Below, one piece after another: positions 1 to 59,491 of a DNA stretch of 64,000 nucleotides (positions are counted from its first letter, which is position 1; each line of letters starts with the position of its first letter). Under the pieces are notes generated by a model, which did not search any database, was not told where the DNA came from, and was given only the letters and a program-made list of their open reading frames with translations. The stretch covers positions 20,917 to 84,916 of the forward strand of contig JAGAIU010000011.1 in assembly GCA_017626395.1 (NCBI GenBank), written 5' to 3'. The stretch comes from Clostridia bacterium. GTDB lineage: Bacteria; Bacillota; Clostridia; TANB77; CAG-465. The position numbers and the translations under genes are program-made.

Positions 1-1081
1 CGCTTTTTTCGCAATATTTAATGAATTTACCATCTAATTGAACAGTAATATACTGCTTTCTAGATGTCGGCAAATCATGCTGTAAATCAACAGCAATTTC
101 GTAATCGCTTCGATAATTAATTAAATTATTCTGAAATTCCACATTAATACGTGAATCTGGACCAAAATTAAACCAATAATTCTCAAAAAAGCTATTTCGC
201 ATGTCACGAATGAGTACCTTACTGTTAAAATGTCTTACAGCTTCAATGATTTCACCCCAATTCCAACAAATCAAATAAGGCAAAGACCTCCCACCAGCCG
301 ACAAATAATTAATTCGGTCAGCAAGTGCATAATTACTTAAATTAATACTTCCACAAGCAACCACGTCCACGCACAACCACTCACCATGATAATCACCACA
401 TAAAAAAAAGCCATTATCATTATGAACCCAACGAAAATCAGAAACACTAGGAGAAACAACAACAGGGAAATTGCAACCACTCACAAAATCATCCACCTCA
501 ACAAAAAAATCAACAGGCAAATCATCAATTAATTGCACATTTAAGCAATCAATTCCTTTATTAACATAAAAAATCTGACACAAAATAGAATAAATAGCCC
601 TATCACCTTGCAATCTATACACAGAAATAGCCGAATTTAAATCAAAATTAAGGTTTTCATTACGCCCACAAGCCTCTAAAAAGGCTAAAAAATCAAATTT
701 TTGCTCTAAAAAATCATAAATTTTCTCTTTTAAATGCTTTGGACCCTTTTGATTATCAACAAATCTTGATATACGATTTCTACTGCTACCATCGCAAAAA
801 TCCACTTTATCAACGAATTTTTTGCCAAAAAATAGGAAAATAGCTGGATAAAAGCCTGCAATTTCGTCAAAATTACCCTCATTTGCTAATTTCATAACCT
901 TTTGAACACTAATATCTTTATTAATTGCTTGAATAATAGACCCTCTATTCTCTTTGGATTTACCTTTTTTTGATAATTTAGAGCCCCAACCAGGACCTAA
1001 AACATACGAAAACCAAGGTATTTCATAAGGTTTTTCATCAATTAATTCGCCAATTTTCTTAATATTAATCGTTTTAGCCAT
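1..1081 (-). CDS. hypothetical protein, 3'-truncated at window edge (N-terminal 360 aa present); early/replication-side gene
   Basis: Manual reverse-complement translation from the ATG at 1081..1079 (MAKTINIKKIGELIDEKPYEIPWF...) runs to position 1 with no stop. It is absent from the ORF track only because it is incomplete. A weak Glu-x-Asp (FFVEVDDF) plus GDYHGEW pattern is insufficient to name a family. Confidence 0.5.
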   Translation of the reverse strand, partial: MAKTINIKKIGELIDEKPYEIPWFSYVLGPGWGSKLSKKGKSKENRGSIIQAINKDISVQKVMKLANEGNFDEIAGFYPAIFLFFGKKFVDKVDFCDGSSRNRISRFVDNQKGPKHLKEKIYDFLEQKFDFLAFLEACGRNENLNFDLNSAISVYRLQGDRAIYSILCQIFYVNKGIDCLNVQLIDDLPVDFFVEVDDFVSGCNFPVVVSPSVSDFRWVHNDNGFFLCGDYHGEWLCVDVVACGSINLSNYALADRINYLSAGGRSLPYLICWNWGEIIEAVRHFNSKVLIRDMRNSFFENYWFNFGPDSRINVEFQNNLINYRSDYEIAVDLQHDLPTSRKQYITVQLDGKFIKYCEKS

Positions 1082-9201: not shown

Positions 9202-9213
9202 GAGGAATAAAAT

Positions 9214-37000: not shown

Positions 37001-40000
37001 ATAATGGTCAAGGATATGTTCCAGTAGATGCTGGAACTGTAGAATTTTATATAGATGATGAAATATTAAGTAGCAATACAACATTAGTAGATGGAGTATT
37101 TCTATCTTCTATTAATTCAATAGAAAACCCAGCAGGTAGTTATACATTATGGGCTAAATATTCAGGTACAGAATCTTATGTAGCTGTAGAAACATCACAA
37201 CCTTTTGAAATTATTGGTGGAAAAAGTAAAATATCTGTATTCGATATACAAGCAAAACCATATTCTATAATACAATTAAAAGCAAAAGTAACAGATGTAA
37301 ATAATAAAAATATAATTAGTGGATATGTAGATTTTAATATAAAAAATATACATGGCGAAGATGTAAATTTTAACACTAATATTACTAATATACCTGTTAA
37401 AAATGGTTTAGCAATATCTGATGATATATTATTAAGCGTTGAATTAGAATCAGATTTTAATACAGAAAGATACACTATTGAAGCAAAATACCATAATACT
37501 TTAGATTCAAATAACGATGAGTTATATGGGTCTAGTACAGCACAAGGTTATATTTTTGTAGCTAAAACAGATGTTATTTTAGATTATCAATCATTCTATG
37601 GTACACAATATGAACCTTTAGGTTTTTATGTTAGAGCAAGAGACGCAGAAACAGGTGCACCAGTATCTAATGGTAAAATAGCTATTACTTTAGAAACAGA
37701 AGGAGTAACTATTGAAGAAGAAGTAGATGATAAAGGAGTAGCTCGTTTAATTCATAATCCTTTAGATTTTAATGCAAAAGATTGGAGTGAATTAGAGAAA
37801 TTTTCTTTTGACGTTGTAGATGATGATTTACATAGATATTACAATGGAACAGAATTTATAGCTGATTTTGATTTCTTTTACAATGAACAAGATGGTACAT
37901 TACATTATATCAAAGGAAAACAAAATAATGAAAATAATGAAGTATCATTCATATATAATGCAGAAACTGGTAAATATGACATTATTGATACTGATACAAA
38001 TGATGTAATTGATGATTACGATAATGAACATTTATATATAACAAATGGTCATTTGTACGCAAGAACAACAAAAGATATATTGCGACAATATACAATTGGC
38101 ACACAAAATTTAAAAATCGAATACATTTCAAGTGGACAATATAGAAGTAAAACTGAATATTTTGATGATGGATTGCAAATTTCACAATCTAATATTGATT
38201 TAGATATACATTCATATGATTTAAAATATACAGATAACGATAGTATTATATGTTATGCAACAAAATACACTTTTACTGACGATATCAATACAGAAAATAT
38301 TAATAGTGGAAGTGTACAATTTATTGTAGACAATCAAGTATTAGATACAGTAAATATTGCTAATGGTAAAGCTATATTAAAAAATAGTCTTTTAACCAAT
38401 ATTAATGGTGGACAACATTTAATGTGCGTTAAATATGCTAATAATAATGATACTTCTTATTCTTATTCATTATTGAAGCTGACAAAAATGGAGCCATCAT
38501 TAAATATTTTAGTCGACCAAGAGATTAAAAATAAAAAATCTAATGTTATTGTTACTTTATCAGCTTCTGATAATTTAAATATACCTTTAAATGGATTGAT
38601 ATCATTATATTTAGATGATGAATTAATTGGCACACAATATCTTAATGGAAACGAGATGTTGCCTGGAATAATTGATGAATATAATATCGAAAGGTTAAAA
38701 GAAGAAATGCAATTATACTCTGAATCAGAACGTAACATATATATTCCTGGTGTTATTTTTAGTGTGTTAATGCCATATGATATAGATAATCATCAATTAG
38801 TAGCTAAATATGAGGGTAATGAGTTTTTGATGCCTAAAACTCAAACATATCAATTATCTCAAATACCTGCTGAAATACAAATTAATATAAAAAATAATAT
38901 TTATGTCGCTAGAAATGAGCCTTGTTTTATTGATGTTGATGTTACATATGAAGACGATATCATAAATGAAGGTAAAATAGTATTAACATATGGAGACGAA
39001 GAAATAGCATCATCAAATGTCCTTGACAATAAAGCTAGATTAACATGGACTCCATCATCAAATAATTTATTAAATACTTATGTAATTACTTACACAGGTT
39101 CAACAAATTACAAAGACAAACATATTACTGCAAATATAAATGTAATTGACCCACTTAAAACAATTACAATACCAAATGAACAACAACATACATTAGAAGA
39201 TGCATTAATGTGCTTACAATCAAATGGAACAATATACATTACAGACGATATTATATTAGAAAAAAGCATTGAAATCACAAAAGATTGTTCAATTATTGGT
39301 GAAAATGGTGTATCTATTATTAAGGATATTAAAGAGTTACCAATTGACTTTAATATTTTACAAAATATAAGCACAGAACAAATGCAACATATGTATAAGC
39401 TTGATTTATCTTTTGAAGATATTAATGCAACAGATTTTACTTTTATAGATAATCAGTTATATATAAAAGGTAAAACAGAAATGATACCTATATATTTAGC
39501 AGAGAATGGAGTATTTTATTCTGAAACACCATTATCAAAAATATTATCTGATTTAAATATTATTATAAAAGCAAATGTACATTTCGATAATTTAACCTTT
39601 AAATCTAATGACAGCAAAATATTAAATAATTTTGTAATTTATAACGAAAGCAATTGCTTAATTACTTATTCAATTATTGAAAAGACAGCTAAATTATATA
39701 ATAAAGGAAACATGACAGCCCATAGAAATCTAATCTATGGATTATGTCAAAATGTTACAGATTTAGATAATAATTGGTGGGGGTCAAATACACCACCATA
39801 CAACGTTAATAACCATATAATCATTGATGTTAAAGCAGTTAATACACCAGCAGTTATTAGCGAAGAAGTTGAAATAGAAGGAGAAATGATAGGTGCAAAT
39901 GGTCAATACTACACCATACCACAAACAGATTTTAGTTTTACTGCTGATAGTGGATATTTCTCTGTGGATACAGGTAAAGTAACAAATCAAAAAGCACATA

Positions 40001-43000
40001 CAACATATTTAGACGCTATTAAAGAAGGTAATGTTTACTTTACAGTTGATAATGAGACAGTAAAATGTCCAGTATATGATTATGAAAGAAAAACAGAAGT
40101 TATTATTGATGACATTGATGAAGTACTAATTAATTATCAAATGCCAATCACAGCAAAAGTACAAAGTTGTGCCGATGTATATTATGAATTTGACAATAAT
40201 AATAATATTACTGAAAGTACAAAAACAATCAATGAAGGATATATTGACTTCTATATCGATAACAAACAAGTAGGACATGAAGCTGTAAGAAAAGGTAAAG
40301 CTCAAGCAAAAATATTCTTTAAAGATGCAATTTATGAGGAAAACACAAAATACGAATTAAAAGCAATTTATCATTCATCTGATAATTATTTTGATTCTCA
40401 ATCATCAATTAATATAACAACTATTACAGATGAAGATGTTTGCTTTGTATCTACTTCAGGAAGTGATAATGGAAATGGTAATTATAGTAATCCTTTCTTA
40501 ACATTATCAAAAGCAATTGCATCTAATAATAAAAAAATATTTTTACTTGAAGGAGATTATTATGCTGAAAATATTATAGTCACACATAATGTATCTATTA
40601 AAAAATACAATGGAGAAGTGAATTTTTCAAATAATACAGGCAATATTTTATTTAATATACAACCTAATGTAAAATTAAATATTTCAAAAATTAATTTTAT
40701 AGAAAATCAAACAACAATATTATTTGACAATTCTGGTAGTTTAAATATAGAACAATGTATTTTTTATAAAAATAAAAGTACATTATTTAAAAATAACTTA
40801 ACATCAACTTTATTTTCAGTATCATTATGTGCTATAGTAGATAATTATTTAATATCTTCTAATATTAATCCTAATCATTATTCATATTGTTGGTTTGGAA
40901 CTAATTCCCCTTCAGATGATTTTAATGATTATATAGTAATGACTACTAAAGTATCAAAAGATAAAATATATATAGGTAGTTTAGCTCATATTACAGCAGA
41001 ATTGAAACATTATAGTCATAATGGAGTACAATATAATTTAGATAATCCATTACCATTAAGAATAGCTAAATTTGCCTCTGATATTGGTGAACTTAAACCT
41101 GTTAAAGATTACACTTATCATAATAGTAGTACAAGTTTAATTAATACATTAAAAGATAACAATACATCACAATATATTATTAAATTAAAAAATAGAGTAT
41201 ATTATGATTCAGAAAAAATTAATCTGTTATTTAATGTTACTAATGTATTTGACGAACCAGTAGAATCTGGAATTTTAAAAGTTGTGATTACAAGCGAGAA
41301 TAATAAATTAGAAAACACTATTGATATCATTAATGGTCAAGCTACTTATAATCTACCAACATTACCAATAGACGAATATAATGTTAGTTGCACATATATA
41401 AAAGAGCAAATATACAATTTAAATACAACTTTTGTTGTTAAACCATTAGATATTATATTGCAAAATATACAATTAGATGAGTTTTCACACTTATATTATA
41501 CTCATATTACTGGAACTGCTGTAGATAATTTAGGTCAAAATATTAACGATGAAATATTAGACATTAAAATTAATGATGACAATGTAGGGACATTAATAAT
41601 AAACGATGGCGTCATAAATCAACAAATATCCTATAATCTACTCAAACCAGGTCAATATGAAATTATTTTAACAAATGAAGATAGACGCACAAAATATGAT
41701 ACATTACACTATACAATACCTTTAATAGTTAAACCACAAAAAACATCCATTGCTTTTGATTATAATACTATTGAAAAAGATATTAGTAATAATCTTATTA
41801 TTGAAATATACGACAGCGAAGGTAGAGAAGTACAATCAGGAACAGTTAGAGTAGATTTTAATAACGTCATTTATGAAGAAAGTATATCAGTTAATAATGG
41901 TATCGCAATGTTAAATAACTTTAATATTGATAATAGTGGGCAATATCCAATTGCTATATATTATACCGATAATGATGGGTATTATAAAGACTCTGTTTAC
42001 ATCAATAATAACTTTGGTGTTGGCATATATGGCGTAACTTTTTCATTATCTGATACAGATATTATTACAGCAGATATAGGAAAACAATTTGCTTTAAATA
42101 CAACTATTAAAGATGTAGGTAATCAATTAGTGAATATAGGATATGTAAATGTTTACATTGATGACAGCTTGTACGTTCAAAACGTAGGAATCAATAATGG
42201 AAACGTAAGTATTATTTCAGAATTACCAGAAAATATATCTGCTGGACTACATAGACTTACTCTTGAATATATAGGCGATGATATATATTTAGATACTTAT
42301 TTAGATATTTATTTAAAAATAGGTCAAATTCAAACAGAAATAGGTATTATTAGTACTTCAGGTAAAAGTGGGCAAAAATCAACAATTAATTACACAATTA
42401 ATTCAATATATGGAAACGTTAATACTGGAACATTAACAGCTGTTTTCAACGAACAAATTATAGGTCAATCTATTGTTACTGATAATATTACTAATCAAAT
42501 AACATTTAATACACCATTTTTACCAGCAAATAATAACTATGAAATTACCTTTAAATATCACGACAGTAATAATAATTATGCAGATAGTAGTATTACAACA
42601 AAATTAATCATTGAAAGAAGTAATGTTATTATTACACCACAAAAAACATGGTATTATCCTCAAAAAGATTTTAATTTTATATTAGATGTAAGAGATGCCG
42701 AAGAAAAAATTATTGATAATGGTAAAATCGATTTATATGTTAATAATGTAAAAGAATATGAAGACATATCTATTGTTAATGGTCAAGCTGTTATTCCAAT
42801 GATTTTTAATAAGGCATCAACATATACTTTTGATATTGTATATCAAGAAGATGAATACTATTTACAAACTAAAAAAACAATTGACTTTAATGTTGATAGC
42901 GTTGTTATAGATGATATTAACTTTAAAGATGAATTGTCAAGCTTGCCAAATAGAATGTTTTCAACTGAATTAATCTTCACAACATTAGATGATTACATTG

Positions 43001-45456
43001 TAAAAGATGGTGTTGTCGATATTTTATTTGATAATAATGTCATAGCAAATTATTATATGGCTGAAAACAATAAATATGTTGATTTTAATATTGGAAATGA
43101 AACCAAAGGATTACATAAAATTACAATTAAATATTATAATTCATCATTATTTAAAGACTTTGAAAAAACATATGATTTCAATATAGAAGCTAAATCTATT
43201 GATTTACGTATTAACACAAATAGTGAATATCAAAGCCAAAACATTGAAGCTATTAGTAGCGATATTATCAGTATTCAAACTGATTTTATACTTGATAATA
43301 ATTATACTCCAATGTCTGGAATTGTTAATTATTACATAGGTATTCCACAATATAAGATTAACAGCAACAATGAAGAGTATATCGATAGTTACTACGATAG
43401 ACTTATTGGTCAAGAAGAGTTTATTAATGAGACATCTAAAACACATGAATATATTCTTACTAATGATTTATTAGCATATACTGCTGATAATTTAGAAACT
43501 CATTATAGAATTAAAGCACATTTCATAGGCAACGATGAATATGAAGAATCCATAGAAACAGTTGATTTAAATATATATAAGCAAAATACACATATTATTT
43601 TGCCTTCAGATATGCAATTTGAATATCAGAGCAAAATGAATGTTAATATAGATATTATTAATAATAATAATGAAAATATAATTGGCGTAGAAAATGTTGA
43701 TATATATTTAGACGATGTTTTAGTATCATCATGTAAAACTATAGATGGAAAAGGTACTTTTACTTATCAGTTAAAGAATAAACATGTTATAGGTACATAT
43801 GACTTACGTGCAGTATTTAATGGTTCAGCTGTTAATAATCCATCTGAAACTACTGTTAGTTTTACAGTAACACCATTTACACCAATACTTAAAACAAAAG
43901 ATATAGACATGTATATACATGGTCAAAATACTTTAGATAATATTATTTATGATAAAAATGGAGTTATTATAGAAAGTGGTACCCTTAAATATGATACTCA
44001 TAATGGCGTTTTAGAATCCAAACCTAATGTGCCAGATGTAGTATGGTTTGATTCTGCTTTCAGAGATGATTGGGAATTAGATGTAGAATATATTAGTGAT
44101 GATTTAACAAAATACAATAACTTTCATGATACAATTCATGTTCATATGCATAAAAACCCTATTGAATTATCAATATATGCACCAGAACAAATATATCGTG
44201 GCGTACCTTTTGATGTAACCTTAAAAGCAAAAGCCCCAACTACAGCATATGATGTGAATTTAGACTTTTATAAAGAAGATGATGAAAGATATGTCATGCT
44301 TAATGGCTCTACTACTATATCTTTAATTTACCCTACTACATTGGAAGATAATTCTATTATTGAGGATTATATTAAAACAGATGGTAATGATATTTTTGAA
44401 GCTAATGAAATTTTATTAAAATTAAAAGTTAAAAACCAAGATAATATTACTGTAAATACTTCAATACCAGAATCAGCAACTAACACACATTCAATTCAAA
44501 AAGCAATTGATTTAGTAAGTGATTATGGTAGTATAGAAATAAGTACGCCAATAAGTAATCAAACAATTAATTTAACTAAAAATCTTACAATCAAAGGCGA
44601 TGCTACACTAACAAATTGTGTAATTAATAACGAAAGCAATAAAATACGTATTGATGGACTTACCTTTGAAAATGGAGAAGACACATGTATCAATAACAAT
44701 GCAAACATGACCATAATGAATTGTACATTTAAAAACAATCAAAATTCAGCAATAAAAACAAATGGAGAATTAAACGTTACACAATGTACATTTATAGGCA
44801 ATAATGCAGAAAAAGGTGCATGTATAAAAATCGGCAATAAAAATTATAAAACTAGCATTACATACTGTACTTTTAATGGAAATAATGCATCATTATATGG
44901 TGGATGTATTTATTCTGATAAAGTAAATGACATGGAAATATATAATAATGAATTCTCAAATAATAACAATGCTGGTGTTGGTGGTTCATCTATATGTGCT
45001 TATGGAGATATAGCAATTTCATTTAATACATTTTTCAATAATGCAGGAACTAGCGATATTTACTTATTACGTGGAACAACAGTATTAGAAAATAATTTAT
45101 TTGATGGTGCTATTACATCATTAAAAACACTTGATGGTAATGATATAGATTGTGATTTAAATTACTGGGGTTATAATGATATTAATGATATTTATAGTAA
45201 TAACCCTAATATTGAAATAAATAACTTTTTAATATCTGATTGCGAAATCATAGAAAAAGAAACTGGAAATTATATTATAGGTAGGATTAATAAATATATA
45301 AATCGTTTAGAAAGTGAAATTACTACTATAAATATATTAGAAAAACATTTCCCAGTTAAATTAAATGAAGAGCAATTTTATTTAAATGATGAGATAGCTA
45401 TTGAAATGAATGATACCTTTATGATAGGTCAAGATATAATTCATATTGAACATTGA
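34009..45456 (+). CDS. giant adhesin-like tail fibre/receptor-binding protein (3815 aa): Ig-like repeat arrays plus three parallel beta-helix modules
   Basis: Many about 90-aa repeats with the G-x-V-x-F-x-I(N/D)...A-x-Y-x-G...Y signature. Three right-handed beta-helix (PbH1-like) blocks rich in N-x-(A/S/G) rungs, each ending in an N-x-W(W/F)G-x-N-(S/T)-P-like motif (39769..39795, 40884..40910, 45161..45181). Follows the baseplate genes. Confidence 0.7.
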   Translation: MDYQELEDVYEFHRNMRKTPWLQLFPHWWDENDALLNAIGNEVERVKAQAVFVLLNAGIKPPVLLWQESINHETFNAHFNAKQLPKTVTIQAPLYETWGKITLTNNTEKDIDGLILKLDNSHGYAINQLITQEDILVINLTENKVLLNKKQIEPQTIGEGMPYFVTQQNNEVYDTNTPLHNEVIRLEISTNDTENIECDIDIDIELENAVFTNEQNIEITGLEAVPIDRVELYVKYDFSFNSKYNGWQKAWEKEYEKNTNVVYDRITTQIYTKEFYVDVYFKTLQYPYTVGFPCYKEATSKSPYHVNSRLDKWGEQLGLPRRLYKTEIPTNEYYRTFPIFYPFDIEQDYWYYKRLTSEYSWVESPVNDVDIKDTDGNNVIRLYSINPFTEDFAVHAKSRYPVDKEFINYNDYHPIAISQQTAKDIGVQTPYKDIINLLSDNNKKASITLNNYTDNNDVVYKRNKYYQKYDYITELGEGVYREGWKEPDSYKKDISYIKSSTHQSTELITYFDLSSLPQDVNIENIEFIVEAESTDNKKNKYATENTGVLIPNYNDSERFFIPLTADKSYQLKKQEITYSNDEVIDYLNNIKIADENIRQSFTIGEFQGKITDFVKIPFELEENSENVDDITDVWIYYNGNIRQASYKNDENGKYIYAYVPNLPIINTLTIICKSQTHKPFSYTINVNKYNQYSEDGTTIEYQYIQGPIVNDEHNEISDYVEWHTDNLRNLMQKQGIYFRHILKNTDEQSSTTVFLYNIQAKITYSPKKSNFKITTNITKKSDFPKIGTLNIKVENTGEKNFSSNVDIITPSNIVLSQNNIPIDLKVGQSLEKDIDITATYPIDDGFYDIVTICEDSIKKDSIEIFSDGLIATGVNLKSHHGKYNDTINLKAEVYAIDGGKINGTDSQVQFYINGFAVGNKVQVVDGLVEASISPKDYYFTGTGNLTLEAKFLGTTKYASSSNKSTIFISKDTTRIELISDNVAPYKGAFELKAKVEYYNGQGYVPVDAGTVEFYIDDEILSSNTTLVDGVFLSSINSIENPAGSYTLWAKYSGTESYVAVETSQPFEIIGGKSKISVFDIQAKPYSIIQLKAKVTDVNNKNIISGYVDFNIKNIHGEDVNFNTNITNIPVKNGLAISDDILLSVELESDFNTERYTIEAKYHNTLDSNNDELYGSSTAQGYIFVAKTDVILDYQSFYGTQYEPLGFYVRARDAETGAPVSNGKIAITLETEGVTIEEEVDDKGVARLIHNPLDFNAKDWSELEKFSFDVVDDDLHRYYNGTEFIADFDFFYNEQDGTLHYIKGKQNNENNEVSFIYNAETGKYDIIDTDTNDVIDDYDNEHLYITNGHLYARTTKDILRQYTIGTQNLKIEYISSGQYRSKTEYFDDGLQISQSNIDLDIHSYDLKYTDNDSIICYATKYTFTDDINTENINSGSVQFIVDNQVLDTVNIANGKAILKNSLLTNINGGQHLMCVKYANNNDTSYSYSLLKLTKMEPSLNILVDQEIKNKKSNVIVTLSASDNLNIPLNGLISLYLDDELIGTQYLNGNEMLPGIIDEYNIERLKEEMQLYSESERNIYIPGVIFSVLMPYDIDNHQLVAKYEGNEFLMPKTQTYQLSQIPAEIQINIKNNIYVARNEPCFIDVDVTYEDDIINEGKIVLTYGDEEIASSNVLDNKARLTWTPSSNNLLNTYVITYTGSTNYKDKHITANINVIDPLKTITIPNEQQHTLEDALMCLQSNGTIYITDDIILEKSIEITKDCSIIGENGVSIIKDIKELPIDFNILQNISTEQMQHMYKLDLSFEDINATDFTFIDNQLYIKGKTEMIPIYLAENGVFYSETPLSKILSDLNIIIKANVHFDNLTFKSNDSKILNNFVIYNESNCLITYSIIEKTAKLYNKGNMTAHRNLIYGLCQNVTDLDNNWWGSNTPPYNVNNHIIIDVKAVNTPAVISEEVEIEGEMIGANGQYYTIPQTDFSFTADSGYFSVDTGKVTNQKAHTTYLDAIKEGNVYFTVDNETVKCPVYDYERKTEVIIDDIDEVLINYQMPITAKVQSCADVYYEFDNNNNITESTKTINEGYIDFYIDNKQVGHEAVRKGKAQAKIFFKDAIYEENTKYELKAIYHSSDNYFDSQSSINITTITDEDVCFVSTSGSDNGNGNYSNPFLTLSKAIASNNKKIFLLEGDYYAENIIVTHNVSIKKYNGEVNFSNNTGNILFNIQPNVKLNISKINFIENQTTILFDNSGSLNIEQCIFYKNKSTLFKNNLTSTLFSVSLCAIVDNYLISSNINPNHYSYCWFGTNSPSDDFNDYIVMTTKVSKDKIYIGSLAHITAELKHYSHNGVQYNLDNPLPLRIAKFASDIGELKPVKDYTYHNSSTSLINTLKDNNTSQYIIKLKNRVYYDSEKINLLFNVTNVFDEPVESGILKVVITSENNKLENTIDIINGQATYNLPTLPIDEYNVSCTYIKEQIYNLNTTFVVKPLDIILQNIQLDEFSHLYYTHITGTAVDNLGQNINDEILDIKINDDNVGTLIINDGVINQQISYNLLKPGQYEIILTNEDRRTKYDTLHYTIPLIVKPQKTSIAFDYNTIEKDISNNLIIEIYDSEGREVQSGTVRVDFNNVIYEESISVNNGIAMLNNFNIDNSGQYPIAIYYTDNDGYYKDSVYINNNFGVGIYGVTFSLSDTDIITADIGKQFALNTTIKDVGNQLVNIGYVNVYIDDSLYVQNVGINNGNVSIISELPENISAGLHRLTLEYIGDDIYLDTYLDIYLKIGQIQTEIGIISTSGKSGQKSTINYTINSIYGNVNTGTLTAVFNEQIIGQSIVTDNITNQITFNTPFLPANNNYEITFKYHDSNNNYADSSITTKLIIERSNVIITPQKTWYYPQKDFNFILDVRDAEEKIIDNGKIDLYVNNVKEYEDISIVNGQAVIPMIFNKASTYTFDIVYQEDEYYLQTKKTIDFNVDSVVIDDINFKDELSSLPNRMFSTELIFTTLDDYIVKDGVVDILFDNNVIANYYMAENNKYVDFNIGNETKGLHKITIKYYNSSLFKDFEKTYDFNIEAKSIDLRINTNSEYQSQNIEAISSDIISIQTDFILDNNYTPMSGIVNYYIGIPQYKINSNNEEYIDSYYDRLIGQEEFINETSKTHEYILTNDLLAYTADNLETHYRIKAHFIGNDEYEESIETVDLNIYKQNTHIILPSDMQFEYQSKMNVNIDIINNNNENIIGVENVDIYLDDVLVSSCKTIDGKGTFTYQLKNKHVIGTYDLRAVFNGSAVNNPSETTVSFTVTPFTPILKTKDIDMYIHGQNTLDNIIYDKNGVIIESGTLKYDTHNGVLESKPNVPDVVWFDSAFRDDWELDVEYISDDLTKYNNFHDTIHVHMHKNPIELSIYAPEQIYRGVPFDVTLKAKAPTTAYDVNLDFYKEDDERYVMLNGSTTISLIYPTTLEDNSIIEDYIKTDGNDIFEANEILLKLKVKNQDNITVNTSIPESATNTHSIQKAIDLVSDYGSIEISTPISNQTINLTKNLTIKGDATLTNCVINNESNKIRIDGLTFENGEDTCINNNANMTIMNCTFKNNQNSAIKTNGELNVTQCTFIGNNAEKGACIKIGNKNYKTSITYCTFNGNNASLYGGCIYSDKVNDMEIYNNEFSNNNNAGVGGSSICAYGDIAISFNTFFNNAGTSDIYLLRGTTVLENNLFDGAITSLKTLDGNDIDCDLNYWGYNDINDIYSNNPNIEINNFLISDCEIIEKETGNYIIGRINKYINRLESEITTINILEKHFPVKLNEEQFYLNDEIAIEMNDTFMIGQDIIHIEH

Positions 45457-52467: not shown

Positions 52468-53547
52468 ATGCTTACAATATATGAATTAAGAGATTATTTA
52501 GAAGAATTTATTGAAGAAAAAAAAGAAGTAAAAAATATCACAAATGCTACGATGAAAAAGCAAACCATTAATATAAAAAATTTTATAAAATGGCTAGAAA
52601 AAGAAAACATACAACAAATAGACAACAGAAATATAAAGAGATGCTTAAGAAAATATCGTAGCTACTGCTTAAATGAAAGGAATAATAAAAGAACCACAGT
52701 CAAGACATACCTGCTAAATGTGATAGATTTTTTAAATTACGAAGAAATCAGAATAATAACAGGACATGAAAAAATACACATCAAAGAAATAATAGAAGTC
52801 AAAAGCGAAAATCCTGATACAGCAAGAAAACGTATTGAAAAAATATCACTAACAAGAAAACAAACTGATTTCTTTTTAGACACAGTAAAAAGAACTGGCA
52901 ACATTAAAAACTATGCAATATGCAGAACTTTTATTGAAACTGGCATGAGATTAAAAGAACTTGTACTATTAGATAAAACAGATATAAAAGTACCATTAAA
53001 TAAACAAGGACTTTATATACTACCAAACGATAAATATGAAATAATTGAAGTACATTTAAGAGCAGAAAACACAAAAGGACAATACAAAAGCAGAACCACA
53101 TTTATAACATATGACACACTTGTTGCTATCAATCAAATGATAATGTCACGCATAATCGACTACCAAAAAAAGAAATATCAACGTGATATAATTAAAGTCA
53201 GAAAAAAAAGAGTAGAAAACGAAATAAATCGTCAAGAACTATTTACAGCAGAAGGAGATAGAAGATTCACCAGACGTGGAGTACAAAGTTTAATTAAGCA
53301 ACAAACAAAAAACTGCGATACAAGAATAGAAGAAGAAAATATAAAATGCCCAATCAATTACTTTAAAAATGTTAGCACACATATATTAAGACACACAGCA
53401 TTATCTCGTTACGCTGAAATATTAACAGTAGCAGAAGTGCAAACAATAGCTGGACATGCTAGTAGTTCTACAACAGATAGATACATACATATTGACCATA
53501 GTAAAATAAAAGAAAAAATTAGAATGAGTATGGAGGAAGATAAATGA
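52468..53547 (+). CDS. int: tyrosine recombinase / phage integrase
   Basis: Arg I in ETGMRLKEL. H-x-x-R in HILRHTALSRYAE. Catalytic Tyr context GHASSSTTDRYIHI. N-terminal SAM-like domain. 359 aa. Confidence 0.85.
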   Translation: MLTIYELRDYLEEFIEEKKEVKNITNATMKKQTINIKNFIKWLEKENIQQIDNRNIKRCLRKYRSYCLNERNNKRTTVKTYLLNVIDFLNYEEIRIITGHEKIHIKEIIEVKSENPDTARKRIEKISLTRKQTDFFLDTVKRTGNIKNYAICRTFIETGMRLKELVLLDKTDIKVPLNKQGLYILPNDKYEIIEVHLRAENTKGQYKSRTTFITYDTLVAINQMIMSRIIDYQKKKYQRDIIKVRKKRVENEINRQELFTAEGDRRFTRRGVQSLIKQQTKNCDTRIEEENIKCPINYFKNVSTHILRHTALSRYAEILTVAEVQTIAGHASSSTTDRYIHIDHSKIKEKIRMSMEEDK

Positions 53548-53903
53548 TATATACAATTAATGGAGAAGAAGTAGACTATATACATATAGATAAAGTCTCA
53601 AACAGAATTGATATTCAATATTATGAAAAATTTGATGTCGTAACAGCTCATACAAACAGAATAGTTAATAAACTAAAAGATAAACAAATCAATGCTATAG
53701 TATGTAAAAACTTATATCGTGGCTATATAGGATTCTTTTTAGAACATATCGAAGATTACATCGGTGTTATTCACATACTTGAAATGCCAATGAACGCATG
53801 CCAAGTAGACAGAGACAATAACTTCTTACTCTTACGCATAGATGAAATACCAAAATACCACAACAAAAGCTTTGAAGAAATATTAGAAAAAGCAGAGGAA
53901 TAA
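53544..53903 (+). CDS. hypothetical protein (119 aa) downstream of the integrase
   Basis: ATGA overlap with the int stop. No motif. Confidence 0.4.
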   Translation: MIYTINGEEVDYIHIDKVSNRIDIQYYEKFDVVTAHTNRIVNKLKDKQINAIVCKNLYRGYIGFFLEHIEDYIGVIHILEMPMNACQVDRDNNFLLLRIDEIPKYHNKSFEEILEKAEE

Positions 53904-53904
53904 A

Positions 53905-54681
53905 ATGAATAAAAAATTAATTATTTTATTAATTATTTTCGCAATTGCTTCATTAAATACTGTAAGTGCTGGAAACAATACAACAGTAGTTGATAATCCT
54001 ATAGTGGTTGTAGAAGATGGTCCTACAGTAGAAGCATTAGAAAGTGGTGATTCTAACATATCCTTTAGTAATGGATACAAAGGATACTGTATTGAATGGG
54101 GAGAACATTCAGCAGAAGCTGGAGATAAATTTTACATTCATGAAGACGTAGATAACAATATAAAAGTATTCTTTACATACTTCTACAAAGAATCACAAAA
54201 AGACACCATAGCAACACAACATATGATTTGGAAATTTACAGATAACAAAGAGTTCAGCAGATTTAATCAAACATTATATAATCAAATTATAAATGTATCA
54301 AAAAATATAAAAGTACCTAATGAAGGTACATTAAAAATAGACAATACAACAGAAATGGTATTCAGTTTCAAAAATTTTGTCTCACCAATATCACAACATC
54401 AAAATTATTTCGGCTATAAGATTTTTTTCAGAAATATTACCCATCAAATAAATGAATCTTCGACCAATAATATTACACTTATATTACCACAACTATATAA
54501 TTATGAAAGCAACTTTACATTTAATGAAGTGATTATTAATAAAAGTAATAATTCAACTCATACATCTACATCAAGTAGTGAAAAAATATTATTCTCTAAA
54601 CATGTTACTGGAGTCAACCTCCCATGGTATTTCATTTGCGTCATATTCATGATATTCGGGATTATAATAATAAGAACGTAA
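53905..54681 (+). CDS. secreted, C-terminally membrane-anchored protein (possible lysogenic-conversion/exclusion protein)
   Basis: Signal-peptide-like MNKKLIILLIIFAIASLNTVSAGNNTT. N-glycosylation sequons (NxS/T) are frequent. C-terminal LPWYFICVIFMIFGIIIIRT anchor. Confidence 0.45.
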   Translation: MNKKLIILLIIFAIASLNTVSAGNNTTVVDNPIVVVEDGPTVEALESGDSNISFSNGYKGYCIEWGEHSAEAGDKFYIHEDVDNNIKVFFTYFYKESQKDTIATQHMIWKFTDNKEFSRFNQTLYNQIINVSKNIKVPNEGTLKIDNTTEMVFSFKNFVSPISQHQNYFGYKIFFRNITHQINESSTNNITLILPQLYNYESNFTFNEVIINKSNNSTHTSTSSSEKILFSKHVTGVNLPWYFICVIFMIFGIIIIRT

Positions 54682-55002
54682 CTCATCAGCTGTTGTTGTT
54701 GGTGTATAAGCTATAATTTTTTGTTTTTTATTTTTTATTTTTAAACGCTTATCTAAAAAATTTTTTGCTCTCCAGAAGTCTGGGTCATAAAAAATACTTA
54801 ATGGATTATCAGGATGTAAAGATATTAACTTCCAAACCCATTCATTCGGATTTAAACCTTTAGGTTTTGTATAAGTTGCTGGATGAATAATTCTTATTCT
54901 ATAATTCATATCAATTTTCTTCTTCACCATTCCAAACCCACGCATCACATACTTTAACCTTACCTGCATCACATGACATATAAGGATGAGAACAATTATC
55001 AC
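54589..55002 (-). CDS. hypothetical protein; likely real start at internal Met (MVKKK, about 54930)
   Basis: The first 24 codons overlap the upstream gene and are hydrophobic junk-like. Basic and W-rich protein. Last gene of the leftward accessory operon. Convergent 3' overlap with 53905..54681. Confidence 0.35.
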   Translation of the reverse strand: MIIVLILICHVMQVRLKYVMRGFGMVKKKIDMNYRIRIIHPATYTKPKGLNPNEWVWKLISLHPDNPLSIFYDPDFWRAKNFLDKRLKIKNKKQKIIAYTPTTTADELRSYYYNPEYHEYDANEIPWEVDSSNMFRE

Positions 55003-55540
55003 AACTTTTATTTTGAACTCTTTTACCTTTACGACAACGTATTAAACAATCTTCTCTACAATAACGCTTTTCTATATTTAATTCTTCTTCAGAGTCAGCA
55101 TGATATTCTTTATCTAAAATAGAACAATTATTATCCCAACATGATTCATCTATTGGTAAATTATTTATAATTTCTTCTGCCCTTTTATTATATGAATCAT
55201 CTATATCACGATAAACCTTCTCATAAAAATTATCACAAGTCATATCAAAAAACATATAAGCAGTAAGTTGTTTATTAAGTTCATAAAAACCTTTTTCAGC
55301 CATTTTATTTGCAAAAACTTTCTCATAATCCCAAAAAATATCATCAAAAGTAAAATTAATTCTAGGATAACAAACAGAAATAGGGTCGTTATCAATTTTA
55401 TACTGACAACATTCCTTAAACAATTGAAAGACTATATCTTCAAATTCTTCTTGAGTATATTTATCATTTGAATAATATATAGTTTCATAATGTTCTTCAT
55501 ATCCACCAGCTAAAAGTTTATAAAAATATATCATTTCCAT
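54911..55540 (-). CDS. Cys-rich hypothetical protein (209 aa), putative metal-binding C-terminal domain
   Basis: CWDNNC...CREDCLIRC...CDNCSHPYMSCDAGKVKVCDAW. Lies in the leftward accessory operon. Confidence 0.45.
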   Translation of the reverse strand: MEMIYFYKLLAGGYEEHYETIYYSNDKYTQEEFEDIVFQLFKECCQYKIDNDPISVCYPRINFTFDDIFWDYEKVFANKMAEKGFYELNKQLTAYMFFDMTCDNFYEKVYRDIDDSYNKRAEEIINNLPIDESCWDNNCSILDKEYHADSEEELNIEKRYCREDCLIRCRKGKRVQNKSCDNCSHPYMSCDAGKVKVCDAWVWNGEEEN

Positions 55541-55713
55541 GCCTCCTGTAATAATGTTATAGTTTGTATAGTAAAACTAAAAAATATCATTCCAAATAAA
55601 AAAGAAGGTAAATTTAAAGGATATTGTGTATTAATAACACCTGCAAATATTAATATAATTGGTGCTATAACAGCACAATATATTATTAAAATAAATATAG
55701 GTTTCCATTTCAT
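55531..55713 (-). CDS. small membrane protein (60 aa)
   Basis: Two hydrophobic helices (IFILIIYCAVIAPIILIFAGV; FLFGMIFFSFTIQTITLL). Overlapping start/stop with its neighbours. Confidence 0.35.
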   Translation of the reverse strand: MKWKPIFILIIYCAVIAPIILIFAGVINTQYPLNLPSFLFGMIFFSFTIQTITLLQEAWK

Positions 55714-56141
55714 AATAATCTTAAATCTCCAGTAATATTATCTATATCTTCCCTAGTAAAAGGACCAATACCTAAACAAGTAATTGAGCCATTAGTTACT
55801 TCAGTACGTCCTTCATCAATTACTAAAGCATTAGGAATCTTTTGTTCATCAGCTGCTCTTTTTAACTCTAATAAATCTGAAGTTGTCTCAACTTGTAAAA
55901 CAATTTTAGGATAAGAATTATCCAACCAACCAGCAGCTACAGACTCATTAGCTTCTAATAAAGATAATACTGATGCATGAGCTACTTGTGCAGCAATCTT
56001 ACCAACTGACATTCCTAAACTTTTATTAACCACTATAACTTGTTTGAAGTCTCCATCTTTGAAATTTTTATTAAATTTAATTGCTCTTAAAAAACCATTT
56101 GCTTTTAAAACATCTATTTTAACATTGTTTGTATCTTTCAT
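55710..56141 (-). CDS. pth2: peptidyl-tRNA hydrolase, archaeal/eukaryotic type (Pth2)
   Basis: GMSVGKIAAQVAHASV and DEGRTEVTNGSITCLGIGPFTREDIDNITGDLRLL align closely with the PTRH2/Pth2 family (KMGKGKVAAQCSHAAV ... [35 protein letters not shown]). 143 aa. Confidence 0.85.
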   Translation of the reverse strand: MKDTNNVKIDVLKANGFLRAIKFNKNFKDGDFKQVIVVNKSLGMSVGKIAAQVAHASVLSLLEANESVAAGWLDNSYPKIVLQVETTSDLLELKRAADEQKIPNALVIDEGRTEVTNGSITCLGIGPFTREDIDNITGDLRLL

Positions 56142-56145
56142 AATA

Positions 56146-56988
56146 TCACTCTTCCATTTCTTCTAAAATTTGACGAAATCTAGTATTATAAATTTCTATA
56201 TCTGGTAACTCTTGCTTTTTACCTTGAGCAGTTTTAGCAACCTGTAAAAAAGTATGTATCCAATTACTTAAGTTCATAATTGCTCGCTCACTTAAGCGAT
56301 TAAGTTTGCAATTACTTTTGTAATAATCTATGCAATCACGCATATCTTGTAATAATTGGTCGGAAAATTGTAACCCATCAATTTCAAGGTCTTTGAATTT
56401 ATCTAAAAGCTCATCGATTTTAATTGGAGCATTGATGTCGTCGAACTCATCAATTAATAACCAAGCAAGTATTTGACGAATACAGTAGCAATATGTTTTG
56501 ACAACACGTGGGGAGAAATCATCTGTACGTGTGCCTTTAATATACTTCATGTAGTTGTTATAAGTCATACTACCATATGCATGTTTTAATGTGGTTAAAT
56601 CAAAATCAGGCAATCCTTTTAAGAAATTACAATCACCACGATAAATCATAGTGTGTAATATGTGCTCTCGTAAGTTAGGGTTACTTTTTCTGTATTGAGA
56701 AAGAACTTTAGTAATATCCCATCCAGAAAAATCTAAATCATATAAATACTCTTTTTCTTCTAAATCATGATTATCAATAACATCTCTCATTGTATCTATA
56801 CGTAAGTAATCTTTTACAGGTCTTATATAGAAAAAACGTATATCATAATCAGAATCTTCATTAGAAAAGCCCCAGCCACGAGAACCAGTTTCAACAGCAT
56901 ATAAAACTTTTACATTAAATTCCTCTTCAATGTTATCAAGCTCTTGATTTACATAGTCGTAAATATCTTTATCAATACCATTAATCAT
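56146..56988 (-). CDS. Pol-beta-superfamily nucleotidyltransferase with C-terminal helical domain (predicted NTase)
   Basis: N-terminal LYAVETGSRGWGFSNEDSDYDIRF matches h-G-S-x(9-13)-D-h-D-h. A further acidic strand YDLDFSG. 280 aa. Lies immediately upstream (in operon order) of pth2. Confidence 0.6.
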   Translation of the reverse strand: MINGIDKDIYDYVNQELDNIEEEFNVKVLYAVETGSRGWGFSNEDSDYDIRFFYIRPVKDYLRIDTMRDVIDNHDLEEKEYLYDLDFSGWDITKVLSQYRKSNPNLREHILHTMIYRGDCNFLKGLPDFDLTTLKHAYGSMTYNNYMKYIKGTRTDDFSPRVVKTYCYCIRQILAWLLIDEFDDINAPIKIDELLDKFKDLEIDGLQFSDQLLQDMRDCIDYYKSNCKLNRLSERAIMNLSNWIHTFLQVAKTAQGKKQELPDIEIYNTRFRQILEEMEE

Positions 56989-57190
56989 TAAAAAACCTCC
57001 ATAATCGTCTTATAACCCTATTATTATGTTGCCAATGGTTGCATAAATTATCAGGATTTTTAAATAACATATCTTTATCACATACAAAAGTTCTTAAGCC
57101 CATACCCTTTCTAATAATACCATCAGGTGATATATATTCATCATTTTTAAGAATTGTACAATATTGACAGTTTTCACAAGAAGGTATCAT
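56981..57190 (-). CDS. small zinc-ribbon protein (69 aa)
   Basis: CENCQYC...VCDKDMLFKNPDNLCNHW. Confidence 0.4.
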   Translation of the reverse strand: MIPSCENCQYCTILKNDEYISPDGIIRKGMGLRTFVCDKDMLFKNPDNLCNHWQHNNRVIRRLWRFFND

Positions 57191-57600
57191 TCCTCATCAC
57201 CTTCAAGGATAACATCAAATACTGCTCCTAAAAATTTCTTTTGCCCCATTAAATCATATGCTTTTTTAATTAAATTTTTCCCTTTACCATCAAACATATC
57301 CTTAAAATCAACTGGCATATTACCTTCTTGTATATAAAGTATAGGGTTTCCAACTTGTGGAATTAACATATTATAACTTCCATCTTTACTTGTAAAAATT
57401 TCACACACTTTTCCAGTATCACAATCATCTGGAAACGCATTAGAAAAAGATTCATTATCTTCTATAGTAGTATGAATATATAAATCACTATGAATTGGTG
57501 TCCCTTCTGGAAACATACTTAAAAATTCTATAAATTCATCAGTTGTCCATTTATATGCATTATCCCATCTATCTTTTCCTACTTGCTTGTACATCAACAT
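57187..57600 (-). CDS. hypothetical protein (137 aa)
   Basis: Overlapping start/stop within the leftward operon. No motif. Confidence 0.4.
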   Translation of the reverse strand: MLMYKQVGKDRWDNAYKWTTDEFIEFLSMFPEGTPIHSDLYIHTTIEDNESFSNAFPDDCDTGKVCEIFTSKDGSYNMLIPQVGNPILYIQEGNMPVDFKDMFDGKGKNLIKKAYDLMGQKKFLGAVFDVILEGDEE

Positions 57601-57883
57601 CTATATCTACCTCAATACTTCTTAACGCTTGAATAGGTGTAATACTTACTAAACCTGTCTTATAATCAATTAAAAAATTTTTTAAAAACCCACCATTCCA
57701 CATGGGCTTAATCTCGTTTTCATATATATAATCAAGTACACAAGGAATTACTACAGTAGTCTTGGTTCCTTTAAGGGTGTTAAAATCCTTAAAATCTGCT
57801 CTTGAAAAATCAGCTTGACACTCTTTTATTCTTTCTGATGCGTACTTAATAATCTCGTAAATATCTTCCTTCATATAAAACAC
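57569..57883 (-). CDS. hypothetical protein (104 aa)
   Basis: Within the leftward operon. No motif. Confidence 0.4.
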   Translation of the reverse strand: MFYMKEDIYEIIKYASERIKECQADFSRADFKDFNTLKGTKTTVVIPCVLDYIYENEIKPMWNGGFLKNFLIDYKTGLVSITPIQALRSIEVDIDVDVQASRKR

Positions 57884-57948
57884 AAATTATCCATAAAATA
57901 CAAGCTGTACACTCTTTAGGTACAGGAGCGTTTACATAATCAATTACG

Positions 57949-58500
57949 CTATTCATTAAATCGTCTGACACTATATCTATCCTCTGTAACTGTACACAAA
58001 TCTGTAAAATCTGTTTTTGGCACAAAACTCATTTCATCAACTTCAAAAGTTGTATCGCCAATAGTCATAGTTCCCCCACCACATTTAATGCTATGTTTAT
58101 CATAAAAATCTTGTACAGGACCTATAATAATACCTTTAACTTCTTCACGATATTCACCATCGAATAAATCTAATACTCGTCCATTGCCAGAATAATACTG
58201 CCTACCATCAGTATAATAGAAAGTATTAGCATCTAATATATCATTAGGATAGTTTTCATAATTAGGAAAGGGCTCAAAAAGATATTTGCCACCACATAAA
58301 TGTAAAACATTTTCATAATTTTCGGCAGGCATAATATATGCTGGTGGCTCAATGCAATGGATAAAAGTAAAAGTCATTGTTGTATAAAGACTTACATTAT
58401 ATTCATCATACAATTTTTTAATCTTATCAGCTGTAGCAAACCATGGGTTTTCATAATAGAATATTGCACTTTCACAGGCACTATAATCTTCAGGTTTCAT
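57949..58500 (-). CDS. hypothetical protein (183 aa), first gene of the leftward accessory operon
   Basis: Aromatic-rich (Y/F/N). Starts right at the divergent promoter region. Confidence 0.4.
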   Translation of the reverse strand: MKPEDYSACESAIFYYENPWFATADKIKKLYDEYNVSLYTTMTFTFIHCIEPPAYIMPAENYENVLHLCGGKYLFEPFPNYENYPNDILDANTFYYTDGRQYYSGNGRVLDLFDGEYREEVKGIIIGPVQDFYDKHSIKCGGGTMTIGDTTFEVDEMSFVPKTDFTDLCTVTEDRYSVRRFNE

Positions 58501-58612
58501 TTAAAATCACCATATAGTATTCGATATAATTAATCATATAATTAATTATGCAATTAATCATTTAAATACTTAACTACTTTAGAAATTACAGTATTAATTT
58601 AAGGTGATAGTC
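58501..58612. promoter_or_regulatory. divergent promoter/operator region with three contiguous 12-bp direct repeats (ATAATTAATCAT / ATAATTAATTAT / GCAATTAATCAT at 58526..58561)
   Basis: Read directly. Lies between the leftward accessory operon and the rightward endolysin gene. RBS aaggtga at 58601..58607. Confidence 0.4.
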
Positions 58613-59491
58613 ATGACTAAAAAAGAAAACGTTGCTAAAATAGCAAAAGAAGTTAAAACAAGCGTGGAAAAAAAATATAAAATTCCAAGCAAAACAGATG
58701 CAGGAATAGGATATACCTATCCTGAATATGCATATATATTAGCAAAAGCAGTTATAACACCAGGTAAAGATGTTGCACATAAAAAGAACATAGGTGAGGC
58801 ACCTAAACCTTCTGGAAGTACAATATCAAGAACAGTTAAAAAAGGAGACTATGTAAAATTAGCTAAAAATTTAATATCTTTTGTAGACAATAACAAAAGA
58901 CTACCAAATTATCTTACATATGGTGGATACAAAATTAGAACTAGAGTATATATTGATGCTTTTGCCAGAATAGTTAATTATTATTACACTAATAAAAGAA
59001 TGCCTGCTTATGTAAATGTAAACAGTAAAGCATTTACCAAACCATCAACAGCAGCACAAAGTAAAGACGAAGTATTTAATTACTTTGTTAAAAAATTCGG
59101 TAATGTTAAAACTATCGATGAAGCCTTTAATAAGGTAAAAGAACGGGGATATGGATATTATTACGACGACGTCTACTCTAACAAGACTTCTATCGATAGA
59201 ATGTATTCTAAATCAGGTATTAACTGTACAGACAGTTGTCAAGTATTTTGGCACATAGGTAAAGCATTAGGATATTCCGTTCGTTGTTTACACGTTAGAT
59301 GTTCAGGTGGAGATGGACACGTAAGATTACAGTTTAAACATCCTAAAAATACAGAAGGAAATTGGATTAATCGTGACCCAGCTGCAATTTTATCAGCTAA
59401 TGGTCGTCCATTAACTTATAATTGGTGTACTTCCAATTACACATTATTAGCGACTAATCCGAGCTGGTTTACTGCTAATCTCAACAGATAA
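58613..59491 (+). CDS. PeiW/PeiP-like pseudomurein endoisopeptidase (endolysin) with pseudomurein-binding repeat; ORF-track start 58604 is a GTG, and the ATG at 58613 is preferred
   Basis: N-terminal KGDYVKLAKNLISFVDNNKRLPNYLTYGGYKI plus a second partial copy (...NKRMPAYVNV) resembles the PMBR. C-terminal NCTDSCQVFWHIGKALGYSVRCLHVRCSGGDGHVRLQF...NWINRDPA is the Cys-His-Asp core. Confidence 0.7.
   Translation: MTKKENVAKIAKEVKTSVEKKYKIPSKTDAGIGYTYPEYAYILAKAVITPGKDVAHKKNIGEAPKPSGSTISRTVKKGDYVKLAKNLISFVDNNKRLPNYLTYGGYKIRTRVYIDAFARIVNYYYTNKRMPAYVNVNSKAFTKPSTAAQSKDEVFNYFVKKFGNVKTIDEAFNKVKERGYGYYYDDVYSNKTSIDRMYSKSGINCTDSCQVFWHIGKALGYSVRCLHVRCSGGDGHVRLQFKHPKNTEGNWINRDPAAILSANGRPLTYNWCTSNYTLLATNPSWFTANLNR

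Follow-up and report, generated by a model that had tools for sequence, protein, structure and literature searches.

An RlaP-family nucleotidyltransferase gene paired with peptidyl-tRNA hydrolase 2 in a large virus of Methanobacteriales

RlaP proteins (Pfam PF10127, "RNA repair pathway DNA polymerase beta family") were named for their frequent position beside RNA ligases; their predicted role was to replace, ahead of ligation, nucleotides that a cleaved RNA had lost (PMC6514570, PMC7824862). Two RlaPs from Pseudomonas have recently been characterized (Carruthers, Fatma, Huang, bioRxiv, December 2025): they add one or two nucleoside monophosphates (NMPs) to an RNA 3'-OH with little specificity for the nucleoside triphosphate (NTP) and a preference for Mn2+, and neither DNA nor protein is a substrate (PMC12776372). 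A mimic of cleaved tRNA is a preferred substrate, and on it PfRlaP favors the 3' end of the anticodon loop over the acceptor end; RlaP also labels full-length tRNA in total RNA, and a tRNA short of one extra nucleotide partly regained aminoacylation after RlaP treatment and ligation (PMC12776372). In the crystal structure, an N-terminal nucleotidyltransferase (NTase) domain is followed by a helical C-terminal domain, and the cleft contains three Asp residues that are strictly conserved; NrdC.11 of phage T4 is a member of the same family (PMC12776372). In jumbo phages, RlaP and an archaeo-eukaryotic-type peptidyl-tRNA hydrolase, PTH2, were listed among RNA-repair and ribosome-rescue genes as counter-measures to tRNA-cleaving effectors, and PTH2 was proposed to hydrolyze the peptidyl linkage on cleaved tRNAs (Iyer, Anantharaman, Krishnan, Burroughs, Aravind 2021; PMC7824862). 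Here, we describe an RlaP gene and an adjacent Pth2 gene in a 64,000-nucleotide (nt) stretch of contig JAGAIU010000011.1, hereafter called the window, which we assign to a large virus of methanogenic archaea.

The window gene has in common with the described RlaPs its profile match, the GS...DxD motif with a third-Asp set, the two-domain build, and the commonness of the family in large phages; it differs in standing beside Pth2 rather than an RNA ligase or RtcB, and its carrier is a Methanobacteriales virus. Its nearest cellular relatives come from the presumed host genus, Methanobrevibacter, where an ATP-dependent RNA ligase (Rnl) follows RlaP, whereas in the virus Pth2 follows. Both RlaP and PTH2 are present in the jumbo-phage gene set, but there they co-occur in genomes alongside ligases (Iyer et al. 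2021), whereas in this methanogen virus they lie side by side as a conserved pair, and no ligase was detected.

RlaP is encoded by an ATG-to-TGA open reading frame (ORF) of 280 amino acids (aa) on the minus strand, at exactly the position where a sequence-only reading of the window had first noted it, and a GGAGG lies 8 nt 5' of the ATG. That reading had pointed to a G-S-x10-D-x-D motif and to an acidic strand downstream of it, and both were borne out. The motif is G35-S36-x10-D47-x-D49, strand 85–91 carries D86 and D91, and all six positions (G35, S36, D47, D49, D86, and D91) are the same in every one of 42 aligned homologs, which span 37–98% identity. A 5.8-billion-protein collection yielded 178 homologs at E ≤ 1e-3, up to 98% identical, and 16 metagenome contigs carry exactly this protein; the ORF is therefore real, far beyond chance. 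Scans of viral and genome collections with the single protein gave no match, whereas alignment-based scans of the same kind found homologs.

PF10127 matched the protein at E 1.4e-39, with 136.8 bits against a gathering score of 23, and PHROG 14344 ("nucleotidyltransferase") matched at E 1.1e-41. The same Pfam family is carried by 120 of 120 homologs among the matches listed. The PF10127 alignment spans profile positions 4–184 of 249 only; tblastn matches to RlaPs of Bacillus, Dyadobacter, and other bacteria reach residues 275–279 and so amount to full-length homology. The closest phage protein in GenBank is at most 38% identical. We conclude that the 280-aa NTase is a member of the RlaP family. 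RlaP was rightly among the four candidate families offered by the sequence-only reading, but its verdict of "family unassigned" does not survive a profile score of this size.

The predicted structure agrees with this assignment. An AlphaFold2 (AF2) model built on the 42-sequence alignment was confident (mean pLDDT 92.3, pTM 0.89) and consists of an alpha/beta NTase domain (strands 27–33, 48–55, 85–91, and 115–118) followed by six helices (131–279). This is the two-domain build expected of RlaP, and it confirms the Pol-beta NTase fold with a helical C-terminal domain that had been read from the sequence. In the comparison by AlphaFold and Foldseek that had been suggested at the outset, the model superposed over its full length on a PF10127-type NTase from Klebsiella phage vB_KvM-Eowyn (TMq 0.76, TMt 0.81), with giant-virus NTases and baculovirus HE65 also present beside phage NTases among the fold matches, and the sole CD-NTase in the Foldseek list had an E value of 0.42 and a probability of 0.12. 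The closest solved folds were HalB, ANT(9), AadA, and KNTase, together with the adenylyltransferase domains of DrrA and GlnE, all at TM-scores of 0.4–0.5 and 10–13% identity. HalB and the antibiotic NTases share with RlaP a Pol-beta NTase joined to a HEPN-like helical domain; their substrates are different (self-primed dA synthesis for HalB, antibiotics for the ANTs), and there is no sequence-level relationship. By sequence, the PDB gave no relative to the single protein, nor to the 42-sequence profile, which failed to match even HalB or ANT at E ≤ 10; the PDB copy searched evidently lacked the PfRlaP structure. The resemblances to solved folds describe an architectural class, not family membership.

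The other candidate families were rejected. For toxin NTases of the MenT/AbiEii type, there was no match at E ≤ 0.1 in Pfam, NCBIfam, or PADLOC, none appeared among the top fold matches, and the neighborhood held no conserved partner gene except Pth2 and no cognate antitoxin. CD-NTases of CBASS systems gave no Pfam (E ≤ 0.1) or PADLOC match, and no effector-like neighbor with a nucleotide sensor was found. For the MNT component of HEPN-MNT systems, the MntA profile scored 13.5 bits, far below its cutoff of 60. In Hailong systems, the HalB NTase is encoded with a HalA membrane channel (PMC13434031); HalB resembles the window protein in fold only (E 2.4e-4, TM about 0.45–0.54, 12% identity) with no profile-level sequence match, no HalA partner is present, and the only nearby ORF with hydrophobic stretches is 60 aa long and not conserved throughout. 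No HEPN, antitoxin, or effector gene was found among the neighbors. The toxin-antitoxin and signaling options first entertained for the operon thereby lost their footing, and repair, the third, was the one supported; the proposed search for a cognate gene did yield a conserved partner, Pth2, which the sequence-only reading had not identified. Nor did the family turn out to be a housekeeping one with no defense association, the result that reading had held would overturn it, because RlaP is regarded in the literature as a conflict-associated RNA-repair family.

Pth2 was identified by PF01981 (E 7.7e-35, 120 bits against a cutoff of 23) and TIGR00283 (110.8 bits against 82); NF003314 scored 122.3, slightly below its cutoff of 126. 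Residues 32–143 could be aligned along their whole length with archaeal Pth2 enzymes of solved structure (1rlk, E 9e-24; 1wn2; 1rzw; and 1xty). Among 25 sequences from viruses and cells, the GK-AAQVAHA and D-x-G motifs are conserved, so that the viral Pth2 appears, from its sequence, to be intact. The viral Pth2s form their own clade of 137–143 aa with a conserved N-terminal extension of ~25–30 residues, and cellular Pth2s are at most 55% identical to the window protein over only ~78% of the query. The extension, residues 1–31 in the window, has the consensus MK.DI.K..N...A.K..N..RKG.F and is absent from cellular Pth2. RlaP and Pth2 are the two of nine ORFs with recognizable families in a tightly packed minus-strand cassette between the tyrosine recombinase and lysin genes; RlaP overlaps its upstream ORF by 8 nt, a 4-nt gap separates it from Pth2, and the Pth2 stop overlaps the next ORF.

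Recurrence of the pair was followed in ten diverged virus lineages, in which the relatives share 60–78% RlaP identity with the window (loci are given as L numbers). Pth2 lies directly downstream of RlaP, on the same strand, in the window virus itself (L172/L173, 100%) and in L169/L170 (78%), L174/L175 (74%), and L180–L182 from pig gut (71%). It does not lie there in L001–4, L009, L176/177, L178/179, or L008 (60–72%), and in L171 (75%) the contig stops at RlaP. Adjacency of the two genes recurs in four diverged lineages while other cassette genes vary, and in L180–L182 RlaP and Pth2 are the sole genes on their strand, within the structural block. Several RlaP and Pth2 clusters also share identical longest-contig sizes (147,925; 64,441; 62,294; 44,397; 10,609; and 9,150), consistent with co-residence.

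Beyond these viruses, an iterative Pth2 search over 173 RlaP loci found two jumbo IMG/VR contigs, L069 and L082, with Pth2 1–2 kb upstream of RlaP. In both, Pth2, a nucleoside 2-deoxyribosyltransferase-like protein (PF15891), and RlaP lie within ~3 kb (L069, 7403–10840; L082, 6210–9268). Pth2 was found within 10 kb of none of 80 cellular RlaP loci. It was found ~1.1 kb downstream of an Rnl-type ligase (PF09414 family) in four IMG/VR contigs of 88–157 kb, namely L227, L245, L248 (5252–5677), and L253 (5244–5684), which ties Pth2 independently to RNA-repair genes. The commonest neighbors across the 173 loci were a second RlaP paralog (23) and RtcB (14). The paralog, a divergent PF10127 protein (67.6 bits), lies directly upstream on the same strand at 16 viral and 7 bacterial loci; L112 is an example (8985–10007, its RlaP at ~10001).

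The nearest cellular RlaPs belong to uncultured Methanobrevibacter (L005 and L089) and share 48% identity over the full length; they are without a seven-residue insertion between strands 2 and 3. An RNA ligase gene (PF09414/PF21189) starts 13 nt downstream of the Methanobrevibacter RlaP. At L089 (10001–13698; Methanobrevibacter sp. RUG344), a stand-alone Csm6 (CARF-6H-HEPN) gene and a TPR gene come right after the RlaP-ligase pair, and both are absent from the otherwise syntenic L005 (one of two loci). The Csm6 neighbor is a single suggestive case: it hints at the kind of RNase damage that such modules might answer and at a possible link to collateral damage by type III CRISPR. Taken from the cellular RlaP-ligase, IMG/VR ligase-Pth2, and viral RlaP-Pth2 neighborhoods, three gene types are linked pairwise. 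The recurrent, directly adjacent RlaP-Pth2 arrangement with no detected ligase in large Methanobrevibacter viruses is a mildly new setting for the family.

The window is part of a tailed virus or provirus of Methanobacteriales of ~147–152 kb because it encodes a pseudomurein endoisopeptidase with a pseudomurein-binding repeat, a Methanobrevibacter-like integrase, and a tailed-virus structural block. In this long plus-strand block, genes for terminase, portal, and baseplate proteins are joined by others for immunoglobulin-like (Ig-like) adhesin-type proteins and by two giant ORFs (2832 and 3815 aa). The guanine-cytosine content of the window is 26–33%, and members of the RlaP cluster occur on contigs of up to 146,842–151,553 bp. 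The NCBI records for RlaP (MBO5476292.1) and Pth2 (MBO5476291.1) are both labeled "MAG: Clostridia bacterium" (MAG, metagenome-assembled genome); given the pseudomurein lysin and the archaeal relatives, this label is most likely a binning error of a viral contig. The window holds no tRNA genes and no Rfam family. A related 170-kb viral contig, L001, encodes a TFIIB-like transcription factor (3706–4413), which fits an archaeal host and suggests that such viruses carry their own transcription factor.

On balance, we think it somewhat probable that RlaP-Pth2 is a virus-borne module for tRNA or RNA 3'-end salvage, or for counter-defense, in a large Methanobacteriales virus. Family membership, intact motifs, the modeled fold, operon structure, and conservation of the pair are the direct observations on this module; as to which RNA it acts on, in what order its steps run, where the ligase comes from, and who benefits, we infer the following. 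By analogy with the Pseudomonas RlaPs, G35-S36 and the carboxylates D47, D49, and D86 or D91 would bind an NTP and a divalent metal, and one or two NMPs would be moved to the 3'-OH of an RNA lying in the cleft between the NTase and HEPN-like domains. Ribonucleases of the host or of a competitor may damage tRNA, upon which translation would stall. The gene linkage suggests that Pth2 would strip the peptide from dropped-off peptidyl-tRNA or its fragments and that RlaP would then refill the nucleotides lost at the exposed 3' end. Sealing, where needed, could be carried out by a ligase encoded outside the window and probably by the host, for which the Rnl-type enzyme encoded beside the cellular RlaP is one candidate and archaeal RtcB another. 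The net effect would be a tRNA pool that stays usable for viral protein synthesis, and it is on this account that the module would count as counter-defense or salvage. The proposed logic, in which a virus mends nuclease-damaged tRNA to keep translating, is that of T4 Pnkp/Rnl1 (PMC12776372); unlike T4, the window has no detected kinase/phosphatase or ligase and encodes a nucleotide-adding enzyme and a peptidyl-tRNA hydrolase instead.

Several observations weigh against this proposal. No RNA ligase, RtcB, or polynucleotide kinase/phosphatase family was found at E ≤ 1e-3 in 50 scanned ORFs of the window (the 9 of the cassette and 41 others, leaving out the 2832- and 3815-aa ORFs and a few of fewer than 55 aa); the scan covered the 64-kb window, and ~83 kb of the viral genome lies outside it. 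Nor was a ligase, kinase, or RtcB found within 10 kb of RlaP in related viruses, and the Methanobrevibacter Rnl used as a tblastn query gave no match in the window. The ligase association on which the RlaP name is based was thus not found in the window; it is a frequent context of the family, not a requirement. Ligase homologs are abundant on IMG/VR contigs of 100–200 kb, and the family occurs on 494 IMG/VR stretches. None of these homologs has RlaP within 3 kb, their flanks show no tblastx similarity to the window or to the RlaP-virus loci, and the contig sizes of the top 120 ligase matches coincide with none of the RlaP or Pth2 virus contigs. Pth2 is not obligatory either because five related virus lineages carry RlaP without it. 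The end chemistry is a further difficulty: RlaP cannot extend 2',3'-cyclic phosphate ends, the kind that most ribotoxins produce, and an incompatibility between RlaP and RtcB in end chemistry was flagged by the authors of the Pseudomonas study, who called the in vivo role of RlaP "potential" (PMC12776372). No host nuclease target was identified, and the opposite-strand, integrase-proximal position of the cassette would equally suit expression in a lysogen.

The last point leads to lysogenic conversion, in which the pair would be expressed from a putative provirus and would shield the lysogen's tRNA and translation from ribotoxins of competitors or superinfecting viruses, with the host as beneficiary. 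The enzymology would be identical to that of the salvage module proposed above. The cassette runs opposite to the late genes between the tyrosine recombinase and the lysin, the pair in L180–L182 is an isolated opposite-strand island in the structural block, and in L176 an integrase directly follows RlaP. In L001 and L178, however, RlaP sits within long same-strand arrays of small early-type genes and not on an island. We give lysogenic conversion a minority likelihood, though a real one.

The pair could also act without a ligase at the acceptor end: Pth2 would free the peptidyl or N-blocked aminoacyl group and RlaP would re-add the one or two trimmed nucleotides, thereby countering toxins that attack the CCA end. 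RNA 3' termini are the site of action of both enzymes, and searches of the window and of the genes next to the viral RlaPs turned up no ligase. In bacteria, N-acetyl-aminoacyl-tRNA produced by GNAT toxins is detoxified by Pth, and in eukaryotes peptidyl-tRNA cleavage during ribosome quality control is coupled to re-addition of CCA by a Pol-beta NTase. Archaea, however, already possess a CCA-adding enzyme, and the cellular Methanobrevibacter homolog is ligase-linked. The biochemistry cuts both ways: addition of only 1–2 nt and labeling of full-length tRNA in total RNA would suit acceptor-end rescue, whereas the preference of PfRlaP for the anticodon-loop 3' end and its scant NTP specificity would not (PMC12776372). 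Altogether, we judge acceptor-end rescue to be quite improbable.

Two further readings have very little probability. In one, RlaP is a toxin or host-shutoff NTase of the MenT/AbiEii type, or half of a toxin-antitoxin pair, that blocks tRNA with extra 3' nucleotides and has an antidote in a neighboring gene; untemplated addition of 1–2 nt to a tRNA 3'-OH is chemically like MenT activity, and several small ORFs without a family flank RlaP. In the other, equally far-fetched in our estimation, it is a signaling or small-molecule NTase, that is, a HalB-like oligo-dA synthase, a CD-NTase-like cyclic nucleotide synthase, or an ANT-like adenylyltransferase; the fold resemblance noted above is offset by its low TM-scores and identities, by the failure of the family profile to find a PDB relative, by the lack of a large HalA-like membrane effector or nucleotide-sensor effector nearby, and by the strong PF10127 assignment to a family that acts on RNA (PMC12776372). 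Both are contradicted by the profile results, the absent partner genes, and the occurrence of RlaP alone in half of the related lineages.

The remaining genes of the cassette and the other features of the window are listed in the table. A homolog of the 69-aa ORF (74% identical) also lies upstream of RlaP in L169/L170. The 60-aa hydrophobic ORF has a 64-aa counterpart after Pth2 in L169 (11263–11457; 29% identity, E 2.7e-11 without composition correction) and none in L174 or L180; this 60–64-aa ORF could be unrelated to the pair, for example, holin-like, given the nearby lysin. Of the three ORFs farther upstream, only the 137-aa one recurs, in L171 at 44% identity. The two downstream ORFs had no significant family match and were not found at related loci. 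A repeat search around the cassette gave weak AT-rich matches only, with no convincing inversion or att repeats, and a sigma-70 promoter scan, a model not applicable to archaea, stayed at background level. The tyrosine recombinase and a conserved 119-aa ORF stand in the middle of the late adhesin-like block and travel with RlaP in L169 and L176.

Table. Positions of the RlaP-Pth2 pair, the surrounding cassette, and other features in the 64,000-nt window
Feature	Position	Strand	Evidence or match
RlaP-family (PF10127) Pol-beta nucleotidyltransferase, 280 aa	56146..56988	-	ORF, Pfam, PHROG, homologs, AF2
Catalytic G35-S36-x10-D47-x-D49 motif, NTase domain	56842..56886	-	sequence; invariant in 42 homologs
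Strand 85–91 with invariant D86 and D91, candidate third catalytic carboxylate	56716..56733	-	alignment and model
C-terminal six-helix domain, aa 131–280, HEPN-like fold without Rx4-6H motif	56149..56598	-	
Pth2 peptidyl-tRNA hydrolase, 143 aa, begins 4 nt past RlaP stop	55710..56141	-	PF01981, TIGR00283, structure alignments
RlaP cassette, nine ORFs	54589..58500	-	
69-aa Cys/His-rich ORF, overlaps RlaP start by 8 nt	56981..57190	-	no family match
60-aa ORF, two hydrophobic stretches (possible transmembrane), overlaps Pth2 stop	55531..55713	-	
Three upstream ORFs, 137, 104, and 183 aa, tightly packed	57187..58500	-	no family match
Two downstream ORFs, 209 aa (Cys-rich C terminus) and 137 aa (118 aa as called on L172)	54589..55540	-	
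Tyrosine recombinase	52468..53547	+	56% identical to one in a Methanobrevibacter MAG
Tyrosine recombinase with conserved 119-aa ORF	52468..53903	+	
Pseudomurein endoisopeptidase (lysin) with pseudomurein-binding repeat	58604..59491	+	Peptidase_C71 9.4e-15, PMBR 2.9e-12
Giant ORF, 2832 aa, presumably tape measure or similar	17239..25737	+	
Giant ORF, 3815 aa, adhesin-like	34009..45456	+	
ORF of at least 360 aa, runs off window start, divergent from terminase block	2..1081	-	no Pfam match

The RlaP family itself, recently characterized, and the joint listing of RlaP and PTH2 in jumbo phages were already known. What the present analysis settles is the family question: the gene belongs to RNA repair and not to toxin-antitoxin systems or nucleotide signaling. 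RlaP, until now discussed for bacteria and their phages, is a recurrent accessory gene in large viruses of gut and rumen methanogens, in which it is paired time and again with a peptidyl-tRNA hydrolase gene and not with a ligase gene. The methanogen-virus literature that was searched made no mention of RlaP, Pth2, or RNA repair, which is weak negative evidence, and a literature search on phage peptidyl-tRNA hydrolase and anti-defense returned nothing relevant.

A bolder possibility, which we consider unlikely, is that RlaP-Pth2 rescues tRNA 3' ends on its own, with no need of a ligase, and that large Methanobrevibacter viruses defeat an RNA-targeting immune effector of the host with it. The effector could be a Csm6 HEPN RNase activated by cyclic oligoadenylate, like the one next to the host RlaP-ligase pair, or an acceptor-end toxin, and the N-terminal extension might adapt Pth2 to this role. 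If true, this would be, to our knowledge, the first RNA-repair counter-defense described for an archaeal virus, and ligase-independent rescue would be a new functional pairing for both enzyme families. More generally, if the pair protects tRNA in infection, immunity directed at RNA or tRNA would exert real selection in Methanobrevibacter, and the pair would offer a two-gene handle on the poorly understood in vivo role of RlaP.

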